A DNA stretch of 64,000 nucleotides from a virus. Location of the stretch: the IMG/VR virus record IMGVR_UViG_3300023296_001674; one strand, written 5' to 3'. Positions 2,600-64,000 of the stretch are shown here, one piece after another. The notes below the pieces were generated by a model. It was given only the letters and a program-made list of their open reading frames with translations. It made no database searches and had not been told where the DNA came from. Within the stretch, counting starts at the first letter, position 1; the number at the start of each line of letters is the position of its first letter. The translations under genes were made by a program, and so were the position numbers.

Positions 2600-3508
2600 A
2601 TGGGTCGCGAAGTAAAACGGGTTGCATTAGATTTTAGTTGGCCCATCAATAGAACGTGGTATGGTTACGTGAAGCCAGATGATTTATATCCAACCAATTG
2701 TGATACATGTGATGGGACTGGCATGACAGACGATTATAGACAAATCAGTGAATCGTGGTATACACATCTTTGTCCTCCCGGTGAAGAAGGTTGGTCTGAT
2801 AAAATTACACAAGATGAAGTAGATGCCCTTGTTGAAAATAGGAGATTGATGGATTTCACGCATGAGTGGATTACATCTGAAACTGTCATTAAAATATCAA
2901 CCAAAGACGAAGTTATTATTCGTCTTGGTCTTGAGCCAATGGAAGACGATGATGAAGATGTGGATTATGTACAAAATTGGATTGAAAATGGATCGATTGA
3001 GTTATCTGACACTGGTGAGTATACCATCACGAGTGGATGGGTTAGACGTGAAGATCGTTACGTTCCGACTGCTGCCGAAGTAAATGAATGGTCAAAATCT
3101 GGAATGGGTCACGATTCATGCAATCGTTGGATTTGTGCAGAAACACGCGCCAAACGACTTGGCAAGTATGGTCACTGCACAGTGTGTGATGGTGATGGAT
3201 CGATTTTTAAGGATGCAGACCATGAAGCCGCGTATGATGCATGGATGGAACAAGACCCACGAGCGGGTGAAGGCTGGCAATTATGGGAAAACGTGTCAGA
3301 AGGTTCACCGCAAAGCCCCGTGTTTGCAACCAAAGAAGAATTATCAACATGGATGCAAAACAATGGCGATGGCAATAGCGGTGGTTATAGCAAAGAATCT
3401 GCTGACGCATTTATAAATCAAGGTTGGGCACCATCAATGATGATTATCAACGGAACGATGATGACTGGTGTTGATAGCGCTGCTGCATTACAAAAAGATA
3501 CCGTATAA
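2600..3508 (+). CDS. protein with two DnaJ-type CxxCxGxG zinc-finger motifs
   Basis: CDTCDGTG and CTVCDGDG motifs; RBS GGGAGA before ATG 2600. Confidence 0.55.
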   Translation: MGREVKRVALDFSWPINRTWYGYVKPDDLYPTNCDTCDGTGMTDDYRQISESWYTHLCPPGEEGWSDKITQDEVDALVENRRLMDFTHEWITSETVIKISTKDEVIIRLGLEPMEDDDEDVDYVQNWIENGSIELSDTGEYTITSGWVRREDRYVPTAAEVNEWSKSGMGHDSCNRWICAETRAKRLGKYGHCTVCDGDGSIFKDADHEAAYDAWMEQDPRAGEGWQLWENVSEGSPQSPVFATKEELSTWMQNNGDGNSGGYSKESADAFINQGWAPSMMIINGTMMTGVDSAAALQKDTV

Positions 3509-10705: not shown

Positions 10706-11794
10706 ATGGGTTCATGGAATGCAACTTGCGGAATATCACAGTTACCAATTCTTGCCGGTGAAAAAATTCGGGTATTCGTTCTTAAACCTGTTCTACATCG
10801 CGAGAGATCACCGAACATGATGTGTTACCCCACGGATAATTATAGAACATTGGGGATTCCTTTTATTGCTGAATATAATGATTATGGGTCAGTTACAAAT
10901 ATTGAAGAAAACTATAACACCAAAATTATTCACGATGAATTATCTAAACTGGCAGTTCTACCAAAGGATAAACCATTCACTATTGGTGATGCTGTTGCGT
11001 ACATTAAAGAACCATCACATGATGATGATCAATATCACAGTAATTACTTTGAAGTAGTTGATATTAGTGATGAAAATATTTTAATCCGTGATCGACACAG
11101 TGCCAATAAAGATGTAATATCCGTTCCGGTGTCCAACCTCAAACATGATAATGGCGAAGGATATTATGACGACTTTGGCGACTTGGGTCAAATTATCGAT
11201 CTTACCGAACGTGGTGTTTTTGAGATTTCGGGTTGTGCTTACTTTAACTCAAAACTTCTTGCTGTCCCTGGTTTATTTTATGTTCGTGAAAACATTTGGC
11301 AAGCGTTGATTGCCGACATCGAAGAAGAAAGTGAATATAAGTGGGGACATAAATCACGAGACACCATGCTAAAACAAATCGATGATTTTTTAGTAGAGTT
11401 GAAAGAAACGGTGGATGCGGTTGAAGAGAAAAATAAAACTCCAGAAGATGCGGCGGTTGCTGCTTTTAGAATGATGCATGGTATGATAACGATGGGTGGT
11501 GAAGAAAATCGTATCGGTAGATTGTTCGAAAGTTCAAGTGATACTTTTAGTGCTACTCTCTATCGTGAACCGATGCTTGATGCTATACGCAACGATGACA
11601 TAAAACTAGCAAAATCTATTCTAATTGATGCATACGACACTTCATCGTTTATGTTAACAATGATGTGTCTTCGTAAATCATTAGCGCCACAGTGCGGTGC
11701 TGGTAGTCAATCTGTTGGTATTGATTATCACACTGCTCTAGTTGATGCTATTACAACTGAAATCAAGGCGATTGGCACTCATTGGGATGAATAG
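10706..11794 (+). CDS. hypothetical protein
   Basis: 362-aa ORF with RBS AAGGAG; ends in TAG. Confidence 0.6.
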   Translation: MGSWNATCGISQLPILAGEKIRVFVLKPVLHRERSPNMMCYPTDNYRTLGIPFIAEYNDYGSVTNIEENYNTKIIHDELSKLAVLPKDKPFTIGDAVAYIKEPSHDDDQYHSNYFEVVDISDENILIRDRHSANKDVISVPVSNLKHDNGEGYYDDFGDLGQIIDLTERGVFEISGCAYFNSKLLAVPGLFYVRENIWQALIADIEEESEYKWGHKSRDTMLKQIDDFLVELKETVDAVEEKNKTPEDAAVAAFRMMHGMITMGGEENRIGRLFESSSDTFSATLYREPMLDAIRNDDIKLAKSILIDAYDTSSFMLTMMCLRKSLAPQCGAGSQSVGIDYHTALVDAITTEIKAIGTHWDE

Positions 11795-17152: not shown

Positions 17153-17239
17153 GATACATCCCCTATATTAATATTATGTGCATGATATCAATATTTAAGA
17201 AATATGTCAATGAATATCAATGATTTGGTTCAGTCAAGA

Positions 17240-17479
17240 TTAATCCAATGACCTTATTATAACATCACCGCCAGAAAATTGAACCAGTTCTTCCATTGTT
17301 TCTGGCCCGATTATTGCGTCAGGCATCGTATTTTTTATATACTGTAACACTGCTTCGGTTTCTGTCGAACTCAATAAATCAAATGTCAATTCAACCATAT
17401 CGTCATATTTTTTCACGTTGACCGGGAGACCCATGAGATGTATAAGTTCTGTTGATATAGGACCAATCATTTTGTTCAT
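17240..17479 (-). CDS. small hypothetical protein
   Basis: Tightly packed leftward ORF. Confidence 0.45.
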   Translation of the reverse strand: MNKMIGPISTELIHLMGLPVNVKKYDDMVELTFDLLSSTETEAVLQYIKNTMPDAIIGPETMEELVQFSGGDVIIRSLD

Positions 17480-17712
17480 TGTTGTTCCTGATTTATAAAA
17501 ACGCTGCGATGATAATTAGGATATAAACTATGCAAATTTTCTTGTGTTAATGGAAAATTTTTACACGTTTTTTTTATAACAGTTAATAATTCTTTTCGAT
17601 TAATAGACACTCTTACATCGGGTAATTTTTGTCCATGCCAACTTTTTCGATATATAAACACGATATCGCTATTGGTGCCGATTAAAACTATTTCTTTAAT
17701 TTCTTCATTCAT
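17476..17712 (-). CDS. small hypothetical protein
   Basis: Overlapping start/stop with neighbours. Confidence 0.45.
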   Translation of the reverse strand: MNEEIKEIVLIGTNSDIVFIYRKSWHGQKLPDVRVSINRKELLTVIKKTCKNFPLTQENLHSLYPNYHRSVFINQEQQ

Positions 17713-17748
17713 TATATACTCACTTACATTTATGTCAACTATAAATAT

Positions 17749-19348: not shown

Positions 19349-19497
19349 GATTGAGTGCGTTTATTCTGTATTATATCTTGTATATATATCGCACCCACTT
19401 CTTCACGTGCAGCCATTATCGCACCTTCCGGTATATACGGGCAATAATGACCAACTGTCATAACTGTGCCACACTTATATAATAACCCATCAGCCAT
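19282..19497 (-). CDS. small protein of the ...ISVAQL C-terminal family
   Basis: Ends YISVAQL; paralogue of 19458..19715. Confidence 0.45.
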   Translation of the reverse strand: MADGLLYKCGTVMTVGHYCPYIPEGAIMAAREEVGAIYIQDIIQNKRTQSWLMYIFHSENWLKDYISVAQL

Positions 19498-19715
19498 CTC
19501 TCAGAATAAAGCAAGTCCACCAACCATTCACAATCACGTTCATTATGTATTATATCATATGTATATCTCGCACACACTTCTTCGCGTGTTCCAGTTACAC
19601 CATTAGGTCGATACCCTTCATAGTTTTCATATTTAATGGTTATAGTTACCATCATAGAATCTGTCATTATGGTATAACAACCCCCGCAACAGGTGCAACA
19701 CCAACTATTTCGCAT
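19458..19715 (-). CDS. small Cys-rich protein of the ...ISVAQL family
   Basis: Ends YISVAQL. Confidence 0.45.
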   Translation of the reverse strand: MRNSWCCTCCGGCYTIMTDSMMVTITIKYENYEGYRPNGVTGTREEVCARYTYDIIHNERDCEWLVDLLYSERWLMGYYISVAQL

Positions 19716-20164
19716 TCTACTTCATACACTATACCATCTCTAGTCAACGGGCACATATAAGAAAATTCATCTTTATAACCATTCCATCCAGCAAAACCAA
19801 GTGCAACGATAGTAAGCAAACCAATCAACATATGCGCAATAGAGATAAACCATCCATTGTTTTTATAATAAGATTTCAATGTCGAAAGTTCGGTATTTGG
19901 TTTATAACTATTGTAGCCATCGTTGGTTATAAAATAATCACCTTTGTTATCTATCTTGAGATCATCTTCAAGTAACATGATGCGAAGCGAACGCTGATAA
20001 TCAAACAACGATATAGATTCTTTGCTGCCATCTACATATTGATGTGAATCATCAAATATAATACGAAATGAACCATCATCATGATTGGCGTATGATGTTG
20101 TGCTATAGACAGAACACAATAAAACCAACACAGCAATCAACATCGTATGAATAATTTTCATCAA
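19667..20164 (-). CDS. secreted/membrane protein (signal peptide plus C-terminal TM segment)
   Basis: MMKIIHTMLIAVLVLLCSVYSTTSYA...; C-terminal hydrophobic stretch. Confidence 0.55.
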   Translation of the reverse strand: MMKIIHTMLIAVLVLLCSVYSTTSYANHDDGSFRIIFDDSHQYVDGSKESISLFDYQRSLRIMLLEDDLKIDNKGDYFITNDGYNSYKPNTELSTLKSYYKNNGWFISIAHMLIGLLTIVALGFAGWNGYKDEFSYMCPLTRDGIVYEVECEIVGVAPVAGVVIP

Positions 20165-33916: not shown

Positions 33917-34146
33917 TACGCTCCTTGATTAACAAATCTATATCAATTACTAACTGTTTAGCTAATAATTCCGCCGCATCTATTTCATCATCTGTCATTA
34001 ATTATCCCCTTATTGTGGTTCACCAAGAACCATAACCCCCACCACTACACAAACAAACAAAACTATCAACCAAAAACCCATATTAATTTCCTCATTTTTA
34101 TTTCTTTTTTAGTTAAACCCACCGCAATTATAAATCGATCTGTATA

Positions 34147-34380
34147 TTAATCTGGTCTTGGTTTATCCGCATACGGCGAAATATCAATTCGAATTAACCC
34201 ATCAGTAGCTACTACATGCTGAAATAAATAACCATCAGCCGTATACCGAGTTAATCGTTCTGGGGTAAATCCATCAACACGACGACAAAACCATGCCGTA
34301 GCAGCTACACATCCCATTCTTCGTTTTTTGGATTTCCATTCCAATATTGCCTCATCTATGCACATATTAATTTCCTCCAT
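34147..34380 (-). CDS. small hypothetical protein
   Basis: Leftward promoter TTGACA-N17-TATTAT at about 34385-34415. Confidence 0.45.
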   Translation of the reverse strand: MEEINMCIDEAILEWKSKKRRMGCVAATAWFCRRVDGFTPERLTRYTADGYLFQHVVATDGLIRIDISPYADKPRPD

Positions 34381-34403
34381 ATAATATCATAATAACACCA
34401 TGG

Positions 34404-34478
34404 GACAGTTATGTCAAGAATTATAGATTGGCTTAAATCAGCCATTTCAATCGTGGTCTGCCGTGGGGAGGAGACGGT
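34404..34478 (+). repeat. direct repeat copy 1 (about 73 bp) flanking the inverted gene island
   Basis: About 85% identical to 36097-36169 (gacagttat..attatagattggcttaaa.cagccatt.caatc...ccgtgggg.gagac.gtt). Confidence 0.65.
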
Positions 34479-34505
34479 TGACATCACCAATAACTGTGAT
34501 ATAAT
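34478..34505 (+). promoter_or_regulatory. sigma70-like promoter TTGACA-N16-TATAAT for the island genes
   Basis: ggTTGACAtcaccaataactgtgaTATAAT. Confidence 0.6.
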
Positions 34506-34516
34506 AATCTAAACAG

Positions 34517-40261: not shown

Positions 40262-40435
40262 AAAATAAGCCAAATAAAAAATTTATCGCGGACGAGAAGT
40301 CACCCTCATACCCGTACTGTAATAGTATAACGATCCTATAAGTGTAAGGTAACAGCCACATGTGAATATATTCCTAGGAATTTTTTTCTATGTGTCATAG
40401 GAATATATACTCACGTATAAATTATAGGTAAAAAA

Positions 40436-40874
40436 TCACAGTGTGACAGAATAAGTGCGCCAACTTTCATCACAGTGTGAATGAAACTGGAAAAATCATC
40501 ACAGTGTGTGCATTTTGGAACACGTGTTTTGCTCACAGTGTGATATTTACCCTCACAGTGTGATTTTTTATCCTCACAGTGTGATATTTGGAACGCTTAT
40601 CTGCTCACAGTGTGATATTTACCCTCACAGTGTGATTTTTTATCCTCACAGTGTGATATTTACCCTCACAGTGTGATATTTACCCTCACAGTGTGATTTT
40701 TTATCCTCACAGTGTGATATTTGGAACGCTTATCTGCTCACAGTGTGATTTTTTATCCTCACAGTGTGATATTTACCCTCACAGTGTGATTTTTTATCCT
40801 CACAGTGTGATATTTACCCTCACAGTGTGATTTTTTATCCTCACAGTGTGATATTTGGAACACACACTGTGATG
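40436..40874 (+). repeat. array of 18 direct repeats of the near-palindrome TCACAGTGTGA (units of 20, 21 or 31 bp) plus one inverted copy; candidate origin or protein-binding array
   Basis: Alternating unit types A (..atatttaccc), B (..attttttatcc) and C (..atatttggaacgcttatctgc); no spacers. Confidence 0.85.
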
Positions 40875-41134
40875 AATGTGAATTATTGAATAACTGTCTC
40901 CACCATGTTCCATAACTGTCTCCACACTAGATATAGTGGGTGTTAATGTGTAATATAGTTGCGCATTATAATTTCGTCATACACTCACAAAGTAGAACAC
41001 TTATAGAACAAAGGTAGTTTTGAATTTTCCATAACAGATGTTATGCGATTCTAACGGGGTAAACAGTGAACATAGGTGGAACATTTGTATCATACATAGT
41101 CCATATTGGTTTGATATGCATTATATATAATACA

Positions 41135-41163
41135 TTGTCATAAGTGTTATACTGTGATATAAT
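41135..41163 (+). promoter_or_regulatory. promoter TTGTCA-N17-TATAAT
   Basis: Upstream of 41169. Confidence 0.45.
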
Positions 41164-41168
41164 GTATC

Positions 41169-41384
41169 ATGGGATTAATACTGAATAGAATAGCGTATAG
41201 CAAAAATAATTGTTATAGGATAAATTACACATATAATGGAGATATGGTGTCCAATGATGGATGGGTTGAGATGTCTTTATTTACGTTTGGCAGGCAAGTT
41301 GAACACAATTGGATAACTATGGATATGTTATTGGATATGATCAACATTGATTATGAAGTATCTATAAGTGTGGCACAGTTATGA
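41169..41384 (+). CDS. small protein of the ...ISVAQL family
   Basis: Ends VSISVAQL; stop overlaps the repeat TGTGGCACAGTTATGAG. Confidence 0.5.
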   Translation: MGLILNRIAYSKNNCYRINYTYNGDMVSNDGWVEMSLFTFGRQVEHNWITMDMLLDMINIDYEVSISVAQL

Positions 41385-44342: not shown

Positions 44343-44499
44343 GTGGTTGACGTCATACATTAAGTGTGATATGGTGCAGTTATAATCTGATAGTTTCTGT
44401 TATGCCTTTCTTCAAAACATGAGGCACGTGATACAATTCATCCTGCAAATGGTAATGTTGGGAACTATCAGATTAGTAAATTTTTGAAAGGAATTTATT

Positions 44500-44658
44500 A
44501 TGTCACGATCACGGCGGAAAGTTAAAGATATCAAATGGCAGAAAGGGAAAGTGTGTCCTAAGTGTCGAAAGGGTAATTTGGTTGGTTGTGGTCAATCCAA
44601 GAAGAAAGGACACGAGAAGTGTGTTTTTTGTAGTGTTTGCAAGGTGGCTAATTTTTAA
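44500..44658 (+). CDS. small basic zinc-ribbon protein (CPKCRKG...CVFCSVC)
   Basis: RBS GAAAGGAA; 52 aa. Confidence 0.45.
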   Translation: MSRSRRKVKDIKWQKGKVCPKCRKGNLVGCGQSKKKGHEKCVFCSVCKVANF

Positions 44659-44673
44659 TGGAAAGGAACCAAC

Positions 44674-44904
44674 ATGCCTAATGTATTGACGGTATTGAAT
44701 ATCAACAGTCCTTATGATGACACGGTGTCATTGCATACTGATTGGCAGGGTGCTTATGAATCAATGGTTGACATGTTGCAATTATGTCATGTTGATTGTT
44801 CAAACATCAATCTTGAAGAGTCTGAGATCGATTTTGAACTTGAAGACAACAAGGGCGAGTTATGGAAATGCACTATTCATTGTGATGTTGCAGTTCCCAC
44901 TTGA
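44674..44904 (+). CDS. small hypothetical protein
   Basis: RBS GGAAAGGAAC. Confidence 0.5.
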   Translation: MPNVLTVLNINSPYDDTVSLHTDWQGAYESMVDMLQLCHVDCSNINLEESEIDFELEDNKGELWKCTIHCDVAVPT

Positions 44905-44958
44905 CACTTATTATAAGTGTGATATGGTGCAGTTAAATTGAATGGAAAGGAATATACA

Positions 44959-45156
44959 ATGATGCTCACAAAAACGAAAACGGTTGATACACTTATTGAT
45001 GCGTTTAATGCGTCGGATTCACCCTCGGATCGATATGCAATTGGTAGTGCATTACGTAGCGAACTGGCGAATTTTGTTAAAAACCTTGATGAAACGATTT
45101 TGCCGATTTATCATAAGTGCGTTGTTGCCGATGTTCTTAAACCGATTAAGGGATAA
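44959..45156 (+). CDS. small hypothetical protein
   Basis: Promoter TTGACA-N17-TATGGT; RBS GGAAAGGAA. Confidence 0.5.
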   Translation: MMLTKTKTVDTLIDAFNASDSPSDRYAIGSALRSELANFVKNLDETILPIYHKCVVADVLKPIKG

Positions 45157-45161
45157 GGGCA

Positions 45162-50281: not shown

Positions 50282-50427
50282 AGCGATCATGATTTAACGC
50301 GTTTGTCACTATTACCAGCGATACGTATTTATACGTCACTCCTAACATAAACCAACAGTTTTTATCTAGTAAGTCTTAACGGATATCCCCCGTAATTTTT
50401 TATCAACCACAGAGGAGAATAAGACCC

Positions 50428-50520
50428 ATGGCAAAAGCAACTAAGACTTCAGCAGCACGACCCGTTCGTTCCCCGCGTATCTGTAAGCCAATCAAAAGCT
50501 CAACCACGCGACGCAAATAA
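50428..50520 (+). CDS. 30-aa highly basic peptide (MAKATKTSAARPVRSPRICKPIKSSTTRRK)
   Basis: Strong RBS AGAGGAGA 8 nt upstream; followed by a terminator. Confidence 0.45.
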   Translation: MAKATKTSAARPVRSPRICKPIKSSTTRRK

Positions 50521-50554
50521 CATGTTTGTTTTCTGATAATCACACGCATGTAAA

Positions 50555-50598
50555 GAAACCCCGTGCCGACCTTTGAAACCGGTTAACGGGGTTTTTTA
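50555..50598 (+). terminator. rho-independent terminator
   Basis: AACCCCGT...ACGGGGTT followed by TTTTT. Confidence 0.6.
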
Positions 50599-50602
50599 AT
50601 GC

Positions 50603-50631
50603 TTGACACTTATAGGGTGTTGTGGTATAGT
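50603..50631 (+). promoter_or_regulatory. promoter TTGACA-N17-TATAGT
   Basis: aatgcTTGACActtatagggtgttgtggTATAGT. Confidence 0.6.
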
Positions 50632-50637
50632 TATAAA

Positions 50638-50758
50638 GATTCACGAAAGTGAAGTTGTCGCACCCTTACCTGGATAGCCCCTTAAAAGGCGACACCTTAC
50701 TAGGCCGACAAGAAATAAAACCCGATATTGCTGCCCTGCATATCGGGTTTTATTTTGT
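50638..50758 (+). ncRNA. candidate small RNA (about 120 nt) bracketed by a promoter and an intrinsic terminator
   Basis: No RBS or ORF; internal GTCGC...GCGAC hairpin; terminator AAAACCCGATAT...ATATCGGGTTTT followed by ATTTT at 50717-50756. Confidence 0.45.
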
Positions 50759-50792
50759 CTGAATATATAACTAAACCAATTTAAAAAAAGAC

Positions 50793-50821
50793 TTGACGAC
50801 ATATAAAAATCTGTTATTATC
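50793..50821 (+). promoter_or_regulatory. promoter TTGACG-N16-TATTAT
   Basis: Upstream of 50858. Confidence 0.5.
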
Positions 50822-50857
50822 TGGTTATCAGAAAACAAACACATAAGGATTTATATC

Positions 50858-53958: not shown

Positions 53959-54032
53959 GGGGGCATAGCTCAGTGGTAGAGCAGTGGGTTCTAAACCCTT
54001 TGTCGGGAGTTCGACTCTCCCTGCCCTCGCCA
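53959..54032 (+). tRNA. tRNA with anticodon CUA (amber suppressor, tRNA-Sup); the backbone looks tRNA-Trp/Gln-like with G73 and an encoded CCA end
   Basis: Cloverleaf folded by hand: 7-bp acceptor stem, D arm GCTC/GAGC, anticodon loop TTCTAAA with U33 and A37, T arm GGGAG-TTCGACT-CTCCC, ends GCCA. Confidence 0.8.
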
Positions 54033-61182: not shown

Positions 61183-61695
61183 ATGATTCCAAACCTTACC
61201 AGCGATGGTGACAATTGGGTCAATGGTTCGATTGGTGTGTTTAAAATTTGCGCCAAAGTTTTTTCTGAACCATCAGTTTTTGGTATCAAGAATGGACGCA
61301 TTAGCAAATTGCAAGTGTGCGATACTTCACAATTACATTGGGGTTTTGATGGTTGTTATTTGAATTATGACCGTGGTTGGGATATGCGCCCAAAGAATGA
61401 ACCAGAACGTAAGTTCTTAAATGACTTGCTTACTGCATTCGGCGATGATATCATGGAAGGCGACGACTATGTTTGGTATGACCTTTATGGTTATGCAGAT
61501 CAAGCCGCGTTTGATCGGTTAGATCGCGAACATTTGATGTCAGTTGATACCAAAAACGAGGCGCTTGAAGAAGCGCAAGGTTACATCAAACATGATGACG
61601 CATTTGATATCATCAAAGTTCGATGTTCCGATGATGAAGACGATGACGAAGTTATCTTGAAAAAAGACTTGACGGAAAAGGCGGTTGCTGTATAA
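61183..61695 (+). CDS. hypothetical acidic protein
   Basis: 170-aa ORF. Confidence 0.5.
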   Translation: MIPNLTSDGDNWVNGSIGVFKICAKVFSEPSVFGIKNGRISKLQVCDTSQLHWGFDGCYLNYDRGWDMRPKNEPERKFLNDLLTAFGDDIMEGDDYVWYDLYGYADQAAFDRLDREHLMSVDTKNEALEEAQGYIKHDDAFDIIKVRCSDDEDDDEVILKKDLTEKAVAV

Positions 61696-63527
61696 TACAA
61701 TTATTGAATTCGCCCGAAAGGGCACACGAGTTGCTAGGACCACGGTGTGTATACGCACTGAATAGAACAGAGGTTCTAACCCTCTGAATTCCAGTTAGGT
61801 TTGCTGGATTATGGAATAGCCGACATGCGACGGTATGGTCTGGTGAAATCATAATAGTTCAATAGCATTAAATTTGTTACGCTGGAACTGAAATGAAGGC
61901 GTTACTATGGGAAGCCATTTAAGGTGAGTGGTTCAGTGCTTAACGAAGATGATATGTCTGGAGTGGTCCAGTGAAAATAGGACGAGTCAAAACGTCAACA
62001 TATTAGCTTCCCGAATTAATTATTGCTGGTAAGGTTCTGCTCAAGCGTTCATAGCGTAGAGATAAACTGCAAAAGATGATAAAATCCGTAAGGAGTTTGT
62101 TCCACTTGTAGTGAATGATGGTTCGGGTATTAGTAGTGCCCTTATGCAAAGTGCAAATCCCATCACAGCAAAACATAGTTAATATCGTTGAACTCTATCC
62201 TATTGGAAGGTGAAACTGAAATCCGTATGGCAAAGTAATCGATTTAGATCATGCGAAGTTATTAGGTTACGATATTATTAGTTAAATAATGCTTGACAGT
62301 TTATGTATGTTGAGGTATTATAAAGAATAGAATGTGATGGAAGGTTGGTATCTTCTTCGGTGGCACAAACCACGGGTAGCTTAAATACCAGAACGTAAGT
62401 TCAGAAAAGCACATTCCCTAAGTTTAGGTTAAAAGCATCGAGGCGTAGTGGCTGGTAGGTGTTATAACCTTAGCGAAATGTAGCGGCACTGGTTGGGTTT
62501 ACACGACTTGGCAAAGACTGCATCAGAGTAGCTTGAAATGGGTGGTGCCGATACGAAGGCAGATGATATAGGGAGTGCGCACAAACTATATTATTTCATG
62601 CGGAGCATGGACACGCAGGATTTGCCCAAATGGGCACACGAGCTTGCGATAGTGTACGATGCACGACGTACCTAGAATACAGCCGGTAGTGAGCCAGTAA
62701 AGTTACACTCACAAGGAGGTTGCTAGGACATTTAATGATGTAACACATTGAATGTATATGGGTTAACCATTGAAGCAGAGTGGGTTTAATTCCTACGCGC
62801 ATTTCCAATTCCCGAAAGGGAATACGACGTTGGTATGTTGATCGTCGGCAAATACATCGGCACCCGTGTTAACCTTGGAGTACACGTTAAATAAATCCAA
62901 GGGATAGGTTCGCCCTATGCCCGATGATTCTACAGGGAAATGGTTGTTGAATCACTTGTGTAGAGAACCCCCCTCTGCTAATACCAACCAAAAAATATAG
63001 GGAGCGTGGCTGAAATGTAGCAAATCAGGTGTGTCACGTAAGTTAATCTACTGAAAATTTGTTGCCCCTGCCTAAGTGGGTTAATTGGGTTTTATAGAAA
63101 AGTAGTATATAATATGTAGGGAATTTGCGAAAGAACGTAAGTGGAGCCGATACAAGTGATAGGAAATTAGACCTTGACGTGGACGCTAAGAAGTTTACAA
63201 TCTGAATTTCAAAACAATTCATCGTGGTGATACTTAACACCAGTAGAACAAATAACAGTAAGGAACGATGGAGCCGGATATCCATGCTATAAAAAACCGG
63301 CATACTTATTCGCCCGAATGGGCAAACAGTTTTGGATTAAATGGGCGTAGCTCATTAGCGGTGAAGACGTAAGTGCTTCTTTATTAAGAAACGCATAAGT
63401 GACATTCGCGATGTCATGGGGTGAAATCCCTCAATCCAAATTTAACTATACGCAGGGCAATCCCGTAAGACGTAAGTGTTTCCAAATCACAAGACCTCCT
63501 TTCGTTAAATATTGTGATTGAATGAAG
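61696..63527 (+). ncRNA. about 1.8 kb ORF-free, GC-richer segment with many GNRA/UUCG tetraloop hairpins and repeated modules; candidate large structured ncRNA(s)
   Basis: GCCC-GAAA-GGGC at 61712, GCCC-AAAT-GGGC at 62625, GCCC-GAAT-GGGC at 63311, TCCC-GAAA-GGGA at 62810; ACGTAAGT occurs 5 times; internal promoter at 62293-62321; terminator at 63528-63561. Confidence 0.5.
62293..62321 (+). promoter_or_regulatory. promoter TTGACA-N17-TATTAT inside the non-coding segment
   Basis: aataatgcTTGACAgtttatgtatgttgaggTATTAT. Confidence 0.55.
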
Positions 63528-63765
63528 CCCCATCAGCATCCAGCGGTGGGGTTTTGTTTTTCCAATCATGCTCCCACATAACGACAAGATTATAACCCGA
63601 ATCTTTAATAAGTGTTTCTTTTTTAAGTGTATTCTCATATAGATGTTTGAACGGTTGTTTATTTGATGGATTTAGTTTGGTATGATCGGTGGTATTTGGA
63701 TTACCATGCCAATAATCGCCGTGAAATTCATAAACCGTATTAGTCGTTGGATTATAACCATCCAC
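63505..63765 (-). CDS. Vsr/PD-(D/E)xK-like nuclease domain (homing-endonuclease-like), paralogue of 39239..40261; the gene probably extends further 5' and may run off the window
   Basis: TVYEFHGDYWHGNP...LVVMWEHDW. Confidence 0.5.
   Translation of the reverse strand: MDGYNPTTNTVYEFHGDYWHGNPNTTDHTKLNPSNKQPFKHLYENTLKKETLIKDSGYNLVVMWEHDWKNKTPPLDADGASFNHNI
63528..63561 (+). terminator. rho-independent terminator
   Basis: CCCCATCAGCATCCAGCGGTGGGG followed by TTTTGTTTTT; overlaps the 3' end of the convergent minus-strand gene. Confidence 0.65.
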
Positions 63766-64000
63766 TATGAATTGATTTATTTTAACTTGGCGATGATTTC
63801 TATCATTTGGAAGACCGATTGCATCAAGCCATTTTGTTTCTGATTTAGAAACATTATTGGTGCATTTTGCACAACCGCGACCTGATATATGATCTGTTGG
63901 GCGTTGCGTAAAGATACCATGTTTTTTGCATATTATATTAATATTTGTTCGTTTATTAACATATATAGATTGTGAATAGTCATATTTACCACTGTGTGCA

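Follow-up and report, generated by a model that had tools for sequence, protein, structure and literature searches.

A segment of ~1.9 kb on the plus strand, positions 61696 to 63561 of a 64-kb window of phage DNA (the window being the whole stretch that was analysed, from IMG/VR record IMGVR_UViG_3300023296_001674), very probably encodes a conserved structured noncoding RNA (ncRNA), judging from its sequence and those of its homologues. A preliminary description of this DNA had proposed a novel large structured ncRNA here. That proposal stood: no frame or code showed coding potential, there was no match to Rfam, and compensatory changes were found across relatives. We are nearly certain that the putative RNA represents a new class of giant modular phage ncRNA, set apart from the Rfam 15 models. 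By the sequences compared, it is confined to one megaphage clade and is evolutionarily modular. Its most informative element, absent from the preliminary description, is a loop at positions 63494 to 63506 that resembles the anti-Shine-Dalgarno (anti-SD) tail of 16S rRNA. The window is part of a phage genome of ~570 kb. The gene directly upstream of the segment encodes a DUF7678 protein and ends at its own stop at 61695, and this exact DUF7678 sequence was found on a contig of 570,750 bp. Therefore, the phage is a megaphage. The segment itself was present at 100% identity in several samples (e.g., SRR7528202, JGI 3300022821, and 3300022842). Elsewhere, the window encodes rIIA, rIIB, an NAD-dependent ligase, and many orphan proteins.

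An open reading frame (ORF) scan with the standard code confirmed that the plus strand of the segment has no ORF of 60 amino acids (aa) or more. The window also encodes a suppressor tRNA with a CUA anticodon (53959 to 54032, 7.7 kb upstream; labelled tRNA-Pyl by ARAGORN), and therefore we rescanned the segment with stop codons reassigned. Rereading TAG, TGA, or TAA as sense did not open a long ORF in any frame, so an alternative genetic code, or TAG recoding, was rejected as the cause of the gap. Each frame had 5 to 20 stops of each type, with the exception of TAG in one minus-strand frame, where there was one. (Despite the amber-suppressor tRNA, the ORFs of the window read normally in the standard code.) Mismatches per codon phase between the segment and the homologous locus L071 were 42/26/34 and 42/33/38, versus 242/155/109 in a coding control made of flanking genes, and the segment alignment carried many indels of 1 to 2 nucleotides (nt). 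The G+C content had been described as visibly higher than that of the flanking DNA. This was so relative to the whole window (0.417 versus 0.374, placing the segment in the top 8% of equal-sized windows), but it did not hold relative to the 6.7 kb upstream (0.405).

Homologues were collected from contigs encoding DUF7678 homologues (50 to 63% identity) and with one structure-derived DNA pattern run over JGI metagenomes. The syntenic loci (rIIA-rIIB ... DSPc-DUF7678 ...) all had an uncalled, ORF-free stretch at the same place. Such ORF-free homologous loci were found only in syntenic megaphage relatives, in about eight lineages (L071, L072/L073, L074, L195, L196, L197, L199/L204, and L208), and no ORF remnants were present in any of them. 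They are 0.6 to 2.2 kb long, as modules have been gained, lost, and duplicated: the ORF-free stretch is 2.2 kb in L071, 1.05 kb in L074, 0.85 kb in L072 (of which L073 is a deletion variant), and ~0.6 kb in L208. The stretch is partial in L195, L196, and L197/L198, and L199/L200/L204/L217 are a single lineage with the 3′ end in L204. By blast, the window was 67 to 84% identical to L071 over most of the segment length. Identity was 67 to 76% for the segment versus 65 to 72% for flanking genes, so the segment is at least as conserved as its surroundings. The metagenome pattern scan returned three true loci and five chance matches in high-GC coding DNA. INPHARED phages had no DNA matches to the segment, near or distant, and a protein search of the same collection with DUF7678 found remote relatives only. 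IMG/VR searches with DUF7678, rIIB, and three RNA motifs gave only unrelated or chance loci (L001 to L057, L064 to L070, and L075 to L194). In more distant rIIB-bearing jumbo phages, neither the PK2 module nor the anti-SD hairpin (both described below) was found. In a genome scan, every match was due to chance, and therefore the scan pointed to no host or prophage.

At least 14 helices in the window are kept through compensatory changes, including two H-type pseudoknots. The covariation check across related phages that the preliminary description had proposed, done here with RNAalifold and pairing tests, therefore came out in favour of structured RNA. A whole-core MAFFT alignment was unusable because module indels disrupted it, and so modules were analysed separately. 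Several conserved helices hold G-U pairs, which on the opposite strand would become A-C mismatches. Furthermore, the minimum free energy (MFE) z score was -5.7 on the plus strand versus -2.0 on the minus strand for positions 62328 to 63000, which comprise a 480-nt extension and the first 190 nt of the core. On the basis of the G-U pairs and this asymmetry, we assigned the RNA to the plus strand. The thermodynamic signal is uneven, with z scores of only -1.7 and -1.4 for the remaining two thirds of the segment. The modules are packed without spacers and have been gained and lost independently across lineages. We refer to the upstream module set (61703 to 62290) as RNA-A and to the downstream part (62328 to 63561) as RNA-B. 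In the L199/L200/L217 lineage, a 90-aa ORF lies between the upstream units and the core RNA, and therefore RNA-A and RNA-B are separable.

The conserved core of RNA-B (62808 to 63561) is 76% identical to L071 over 62808 to 63325, and parts of it are recognizable in L072, L074, L195, L196, L204, and L208. Near its start is pseudoknot PK1 (62825 to 62862), formed by a hairpin (62836-62842/62856-62862) with a loop (62843 to 62847) that pairs with 62825 to 62829. Both stems are fully paired in four lineages, with compensatory versions CGACG/CGUCG, GGGCG/CGCCC, CGGCG/CGCCG, and CGGCU/AGCCG. Further along are a hairpin with a conserved C-rich loop, AACCCCC (62960 to 62978; eight lineages, three pairs changed on both sides in four of the eight sequences), and helix Pa (63005-63010/63033-63038), which is 100% paired in eight lineages, has three pair types at one position, and continues on its 3′ strand into one copy of ACGUAAGU. 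RNAalifold predicted both elements independently from the eight lineages. When they were scored together, 99% of cells were paired, versus 84% after shuffling and 26 to 54% with the partners slid, and five pairs were changed on both sides. Module PK2 (63216 to 63334) contains a helix (63225-63229/63238-63242) and a hairpin (63268-63272/63281-63285) with a loop, GCCGG (63273 to 63277), that pairs with CCGGC (63297 to 63301) to make the pseudoknot; in L071 these strands are GCCAG/CUGGC. All 14 nested pairs of PK2 were 100% paired, with three compensatory positions. A PK2 covariance model, R1, built from nine copies, gave 90 bits for the window and 95 to 122 bits for the eight other copies, which are sequences used to build the model. 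L204 has three tandem PK2 copies. In RNA-A, module G (62024 to 62170) is a closed multihelix junction that RNAalifold predicted from five lineages with 24 pairs, nine of them changed on both sides. It has a closing helix (62024-62028/62166-62170), an inner helix GAUGG/CCAUC (62117-62121/62160-62164), and the conserved single strands CUAAACU, GUGAAUGA, and AGUGCAAAUCCC. In L072 and L074, module G is in the 3′ part of one compact RNA, directly 5′ of the anti-SD hairpin.

A signature hairpin, aUUC-GCCC-N4-GGGC-A(m)ACGAG, recurs at 61712, 62624, and 63312 with an invariant stem. A motif scan found the first as AUUC-GCCC-GAAA-GGGC-ACACGAG followed by UUGCUAGGAC (61708 to 61740); the second (62620 to 62642) is inside the 480-nt extension of RNA-B, and the third (63312 to 63323) follows the PK2 pseudoknot. 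The corresponding DNA motif, aTTCGCCC-N4-GGGCA(m)ACGAG, had one to four copies in eight of nine related loci scanned and none in L196, which is partial. These hairpins had been described as GNRA modules. Their stems are stable, but the tetraloop varies across homologues (GAAA, GAAU, GAGA, UAAU, AAAU, and UUCG) and is not a conserved GNRA.

The only element that is invariant in every complete copy is the loop of the 3′-terminal hairpin (63485 to 63519), which in the window has the stem AAUCACAA/UUGUGAUU and the loop ACCUCCUUUCGUU. Six lineages have a complete 3′ end (the window, L071, L072/L073, L074, L204, and L208), and the hairpin is conserved in all six. They share the order of a small covarying hairpin, the string (C)GUAAG(U/A)CG(U/C)AAG, a hairpin of 7 to 8 bp, and an intrinsic terminator. 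In the window, the first two of these are a small hairpin and then CGUAAGACGUAAGU (63452 to 63477). The sequence of the 7- to 8-bp stem is different in each lineage (AAUCACAA, UGGGCGCG, UGAUGGG, CGAUGGGC, GAGGCGCG, and AAAUCGCC), and its length was reached by only 1 to 46 of 2000 shuffles, depending on the lineage. The loop of 17 to 24 nt always contains (A/C)CCUCCUUUCGUU (6/6 lineages; 13 invariant nucleotides), and it has an invariant CGUU(CAA) 3′ extension, in the window as well. Even the compact L208 version, which is without many of the modules, keeps this loop. In many bacteria, the 3′ tail of 16S rRNA is ...ACCUCCUUUCU-3′, and we take the loop to be equal to this anti-SD tail over 10 nt (ACCUCCUUUC). 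A cross-lineage search for a conserved intramolecular partner of the anti-SD loop, or of the C-rich loop, found no consistent site.

The phage genes use AGGAG, AAAGGAG, or GAAAGGA ribosome-binding sites (RBSs), to which the loop is complementary. In the relatives, ACGAAAGG occurred in 23 of 46 GAAAGG-type RBSs, versus 4 of 23 occurrences of GAAAGG elsewhere, and these sites give 10 to 11 nt of complementarity to the loop. We also noted an extended RBS, (A)ACGAAAGG(A/G), on many early genes of L071, L072, L074, L195, L196, L197, L204, L208, and L218. There were 37 such sites in 143 kb (e.g., L071 5439, 8516, 8892, and 15728), often after CAUCA and inside inverted repeats flanking a promoter. 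The window's phage has almost none (58989).

The preliminary description had a promoter at 62293 and a terminator at about 63528 bracketing a transcript of ~1.2 kb. Both sites are present, but there is also a second promoter, and a form of ~1.86 kb is probable. This second promoter, P1, is a sigma-70-type promoter-like site (TTGACG-16-TATAAT, 61669 to 61696, 11/12 matches) within the last codons of the DUF7678 gene, with a predicted start near 61703. L071 also has a promoter at the end of its DUF7678 gene. The promoter scan placed P2, (GC)TTGACA-17-TATTAT, at 62293 to 62321, with a predicted start near 62328. Promoters of the P2 type, GCTTGACA-N17-TAnnnT, occur five times in the window versus 0.04 expected, and they are also found ahead of the core RNA in L071, L072, L074, L204, and L208. 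(A third promoter-like site, at 63174 to 63201, is not conserved in L071 and so is probably a chance match.) The intrinsic terminator (63527 to 63561) has a 7-bp stem, CCCCAUC/GGUGGGG, and a 10-nt loop, followed by UUUUGUUUUU. It was read from the sequence and fold, because the loop limit of the terminator scan tool caused the scan to miss it. An equivalent terminator follows the anti-SD hairpin in six of six lineages with a complete 3′ end. Neither the scan nor the sequence revealed an internal terminator between P1, P2, and 63527. With two promoters, there are probably two nested or adjacent transcripts, one of ~1.86 kb from P1 and one of ~1.23 kb from P2 (RNA-B). Since RNA-A and P2 are not separated by a terminator, P1 transcripts probably read through to 63561. 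L071 has four promoter-like sites. Between the L071 equivalents of window positions 61872 and 61873, inside RNA unit 1, there is a 44-nt insertion (L071 11519 to 11562) with a complete promoter-like cassette (CTTGACA-N17-TATTGT-like). By analogy, this suggests mobile promoter cassettes akin to the PeSL elements of T4-type phages.

What might this RNA do? Our tentative preference, which we rate as a real possibility somewhat short of an even chance, is that its anti-SD loop engages Shine-Dalgarno (SD) leaders or anti-SD-binding factors and in this way reprograms translation initiation. The loop is taken as the active site because it is the sole feature that no lineage has changed. The RNA would be made early from host-type promoters. 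Its loop would base-pair with SD leaders, masking or capturing RBSs, or alternatively it would bind a factor that recognizes the tail of 16S rRNA, in the way that the anti-SD mimic of OLE RNA binds bS21. By either route, translation initiation would shift during infection, and the large ornate body would be a stable scaffold, possibly protein binding or self-assembling. A large ncRNA carrying an anti-SD mimic has a precedent in OLE RNA, in which the P6 helix mimics an SD/anti-SD duplex and binds ribosomal protein bS21 (PMC12054373).

Several points weigh against such an effect on initiation by an RNA whose transcription is predicted from the promoters and terminator. With a single anti-SD loop on each 1.2-kb RNA, a sponge would be costly, and masking SDs globally would affect messages of the phage itself as well. 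The mechanism leaves the large modular body without explanation. The loop has been likened to the general bacterial 16S tail, which may not be that of the host. An S21-like gene was not found in the 64-kb window or related loci, although this was a weak test. Because the ACGAAAGG sites belong to repeated early promoter/stem-loop cassettes, they are not independent observations. Finally, the window's phage lacks ACGAAAGG (0 of 20), though its loop keeps CGUU. A bolder version, which we regard as unlikely, is that the RNA is a phage surrogate of the ribosome's mRNA-recruiting tail, a trans-acting anti-SD with a clade-specific CGUU extension matching the ACGAAAGG leaders of early promoter cassettes in the relatives, which would dock on 30S/bS21 or capture leaders. 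If true, a surrogate tail would mean phage-controlled selectivity of translation initiation carried by RNA rather than protein.

Four other explanations were weighed, and in descending order they are a scaffold, a cluster of RNAs, a decoy of the 16S tail, and a DNA-level element. We consider it unlikely, but less so than the other three, that this is a self-assembling or protein-scaffolding ornate RNA in the style of ROOL and GOLLD, with its function in its three-dimensional or quaternary architecture and with the loop as a structural contact or incidental. The size, modularity, pseudoknots, capped hairpins with conserved flanks, phage location, and possession of a promoter and terminator would all fit, as would the varying copy number of modules (three tandem PK2 copies in L204). 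GOLLD, ROOL, and OLE are reported to form RNA-only homo-oligomers (PMC12286853). However, the RNA has no similarity to any of those three, and because the tetraloops vary freely, a fixed tetraloop-receptor contact is unlikely. The sole invariant long single-stranded element is the anti-SD-like loop, with no conserved RNA partner found, and the ~0.6-kb L208 version, which lacks many modules, retains it.

Somewhat less likely again is that the segment is a cluster or operon of separate small to medium RNAs, made by internal promoters or processing, of which the last (~80 to 110 nt, the anti-SD hairpin plus terminator) would be an RBS-masking small RNA (sRNA). At the 3′ end, a seed loop is followed by a terminator, as in trans-acting sRNAs. 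The two promoters of the window, the four promoter-like sites of L071, the protein gene between upstream units and core in the L199/L217 lineage, and the independent gain and loss of modules are also in its favour. Set against these are the lack of internal terminators between P1, P2, and 63527, the packing of modules without spacers, and the compact versions, which are single promoter-to-terminator units of 0.6 to 1.0 kb.

The loop's identity to the 16S tail over 10 nt and its invariance amid changing surroundings could also be accounted for by a decoy of the 16S rRNA 3′ end that titrates an rRNase toxin, a 3′-end maturation nuclease, or an immunity sensor, thereby protecting ribosomes. In L072 and L074, a motif ~20 nt before the loop resembles 16S AAGUCGUAA..GG. 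However, the window, L071, L204, and L208 do not conserve this motif, there was no small-subunit (SSU) rRNA model match at an E value of ≤10, and no candidate toxin or partner was identified. We think a decoy improbable. A DNA-level element (a replication origin, packaging site, or recombination hotspot) or decayed DNA of coding or intron origin would suit an ORF-free stretch with promoters and short repeated motifs, as well as the adjoining homing endonuclease gene, but we judge it very improbable given that compensatory changes keep helices on one strand, G-U pairs included, that the pseudoknots covary, that the segment is at least as conserved as flanking genes, and that there are no tandem iterons, intron model matches, or ORF remnants in homologues.

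If the class is accepted, an RNA of up to 2.2 kb would be among the largest ncRNAs outside rRNA. The gain, loss, and duplication of its modules across megaphages would amount to a natural experiment in RNA domain evolution. The invariant anti-SD loop is a concrete, testable functional handle, which is unusual for large ornate RNAs. Huge phages are already known to carry many translation genes, and the loop points to an RNA-based manipulation of translation initiation by such phages.

Other features of RNA-A and RNA-B were as follows. RNA-A is 67% identical to L071 11333 to 11954, with partial matches in L195 and L197. After its signature hairpin comes the hairpin GGUGUG-UAUA-CGCACU (61744 to 61759), in which pairing is retained as GGUGGG/CCCACC in L071 and GGCGGG/UUUGCC in L195. 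The next hairpin, CAGAGG-TTCTAAC-CCTCTG (61768 to 61786), has a stem that covaries in L071 and has one pair broken in L195. It had been described as a mimic of the anticodon arm of the suppressor tRNA. Its 7-nt loop, UUCUAAC, does resemble the UUCUAAA of the tRNA (TTCTAAA in the gene) and is kept in L071, but L195 has UUUAAAC instead, so that mimicry of the tRNA has not been conserved. The hairpin UCCAG-9 nt-CUGGA (61790 to 61808) is GCUAC/GUAGC in L195, with both sides changed in three pairs. RNA-B of the window begins with a very stable, lineage-specific 5′ extension of 480 nt (62328 to 62807), in which blast found a block (62424 to 62508) common to L071 and L072. The extension takes the place of "module H," which opens the core RNA in all relatives and is absent from the window. 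Within the core, the helix CCUUGGA/UCCAAGG (62873-62879/62896-62902) is CCUUGAA/UUCAAGG in L204, and the hairpin AUAGG-UUCGC-CCUAU (62904 to 62918) is GCUGG-UUCGC-CCAG(U/C) in L071, L074, and L195. A putative closed domain, UUUGGAUU/AAUCCAAA (63331 to 63440), was read from the sequence and is possibly a degenerate module G paralogue (GGUGAAG ... GGUGAAAUCCCUC). A long-range helix in the MFE fold (62343-62351/62981-62989) was rejected after inspection found it unsupported in L071, L204, and L208.

The GC-stem hairpins and repeats listed in the preliminary description are all there and are clustered in the segment. The hairpins read in the sequence are GCCC-GAAA-GGGC (61712 to 61723), GCCC-AAAT-GGGC (62624 to 62635), GCCC-GAAT-GGGC (63312 to 63323), TCCC-GAAA-GGGA (62810 to 62821), and ATAGG-TTCGC-CCTAT (62904 to 62918). 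All three copies of GCCCNNNNGGGC in the 64 kb are inside the segment (expected, 0.14). ACGTAAGT occurs five times in the segment, as described, and the window has two more copies, one of them in the upstream ORF (61407), against 1.6 expected over all 64 kb. The module reported at 61712 and about 62625 is indeed repeated, with TTGCTAGGAC at 61731 and 62720, but the insertion separating the second copy from its hairpin is 77 nt rather than 75. The GTGGTGCCGATAC-like strings are likewise present, as GTGGTGCCGATAC / GTGGAGCCGATAC at 62542 and 63141 and GGAGCCGGATA at 63270. The repeated modules are at least 110 nt long, diverged, and not head to tail in the window, and a TRF tandem-repeat search found no arrays and no tandem iterons in the segment. 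The receptor-like strings CCUAAG and UAUGG were noted in the segment. A lambda boxB/nut-like reading of the GCCC hairpins, a possible resemblance only, was set aside.

Several observations concern the surroundings of the RNA. The suppressor tRNA is conserved in relatives (L071 675 to 750; L074 2325 to 2399). A minus-strand gene for a DUF723 (Hef-like, Vsr-fold) homing endonuclease, at 63505 to 64000 in the window, converges on the RNA. By L058 coordinates, the full gene is 63505 to 64239, and its last codons enter the RNA terminator, so that the tail of this ORF and the terminator overlap. The same convergence is seen in L208 (about 640 to 800), and L058 has a second DUF723 copy, with 68% DNA identity, 7 kb downstream (19355 to 20089). 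In L072 (12582 to 13076), L073 (11221 to 11715), and L074 (13132 to 13656), the gene directly after the RNA terminator encodes a PTH2-type peptidyl-tRNA hydrolase and has its own promoter. This translation-related gene is not at the equivalent place in the window. L073 is nearly identical to L072 but is without ~255 nt of the RNA (at about 10905 to 10915; L072 12000 to 12255), either because this is a natural deletion or because the assembly is at fault. The missing part runs from the right arm of the C-loop hairpin through helix Pa, PK2, and a GCCC hairpin into the start of module G. Public annotation places genes over the RNA in some relatives: a "140 aa" ORF in L074 (12025 to 12447) and, in L199, calls at 2674 to 2946 and 2985 to 3494, including a "169 aa" minus-strand ORF. 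The L074 ORF is only 34 codons in L072 and 9 in L071, and because it is not conserved, the call is probably spurious. The window has five other stretches of 0.6 to 1.1 kb without an ORF of at least 80 aa on either strand (40262 to 41380, 44361 to 45161, 33917 to 34516, 17153 to 17748, and 50282 to 50857). They may hold small genes or further RNAs.

We compared the segment with known RNA families and systems. Large structured ncRNAs are rare in bacteria and phages, the main examples being OLE, GOLLD, ROOL, raiA, and HEARO, and each of these opened new biology. In the literature searched, no RNA of this kind was described from huge phages. With Rfam 15 at the gathering score, no family matched the segment in the window or in L071 to L074. 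At an E value of ≤10, positions 61500 to 63700 had no GOLLD, ROOL, OLE, intron, HEARO, rRNA, or tRNA match, so these are excluded at that sensitivity. At E values of ≤5 to 10, there was no match to GOLLD, ROOL, or OLE in L072, L208, L204, L196, or L197. Permissive searches of the window and relatives gave noise-level matches only (rnk leader, snoRNA, anti-hemB, and FinP). The Rfam check suggested earlier, which was to cover introns, OMEGA/HEARO RNAs, retrons, and riboswitches, thus matched no known family. The hairpins had also been called reminiscent of self-splicing introns or ribozymes, and nothing supported this. Group I and II introns were rejected because there was no model match, the DUF7678 ORF ends at its own stop, and the downstream gene is on the other strand. 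HEARO/OMEGA RNAs and retron msr-msd were rejected too: besides the lack of an Rfam match, the neighbours are DUF7678 and the DUF723 endonuclease, with no IscB/TnpB or reverse transcriptase. A riboswitch had no Rfam match either, and the unit ends in a terminator, beyond which there is no gene on the same strand (beyond the RNA terminator of L072 and L074 comes a new promoter). For a tRNA- or tmRNA-like element, ARAGORN and the Rfam tRNA model found only the suppressor tRNA at 53959. A type III antitoxin (ToxI-like) array was rejected for want of head-to-tail pseudoknot units of 30 to 45 nt and an adjacent toxin gene.

The systems it does resemble each differ from it. GOLLD and ROOL are also phage-borne, stand-alone units with many helices and pseudoknots and with variable and conserved halves. 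However, they range from hundreds of nucleotides to ~0.8 kb, whereas this RNA is 1.2 to 2.2 kb with shuffled and duplicated modules, and they are frequently beside tRNA genes; here the only tRNA is 7.7 kb upstream. GOLLD and ROOL are not known to end in an anti-SD-like loop. The free-standing endonuclease beside a structured RNA gene recalls segB in the T4 tRNA cluster. The likeness to T4 RegB and RegA is functional only: they are early phage products that act on the SD regions of messages and so alter the translation programme, but they are proteins, and no homology ties them to this RNA. RBS-masking sRNAs (RsaE/RoxS of Firmicutes and prophage DicF) similarly have their own promoter, an exposed seed complementary to the SD, and a terminator directly after it. 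They are 50 to 250 nt with CU-rich loop seeds and specific targets, whereas here a generic anti-SD is carried on a body of 0.6 to 2.2 kb. The 16S 3′ tail has the same 10 nt, predicted to be presented single stranded here as well. In 16S rRNA this is a free 3′ end, whereas here it is in a closed loop and leads into the invariant GUU(CAA), unlike the usual 16S sequence at that point. SSU rRNA covariance models had no match at E values of ≤10, and the similarity is confined to the 10-nt tail. Like this RNA, OLE is large and ornate, copies the 16S anti-SD core CCUCCU perfectly, and has a link to translation. OLE (about 600 nt, in Bacillota) is cellular and membrane associated, whereas the RNA described here is phage borne. 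Also, the anti-SD copy of OLE is base-paired to an SD-like strand, whereas that of the phage RNA is predicted to be single stranded in its hairpin loop.

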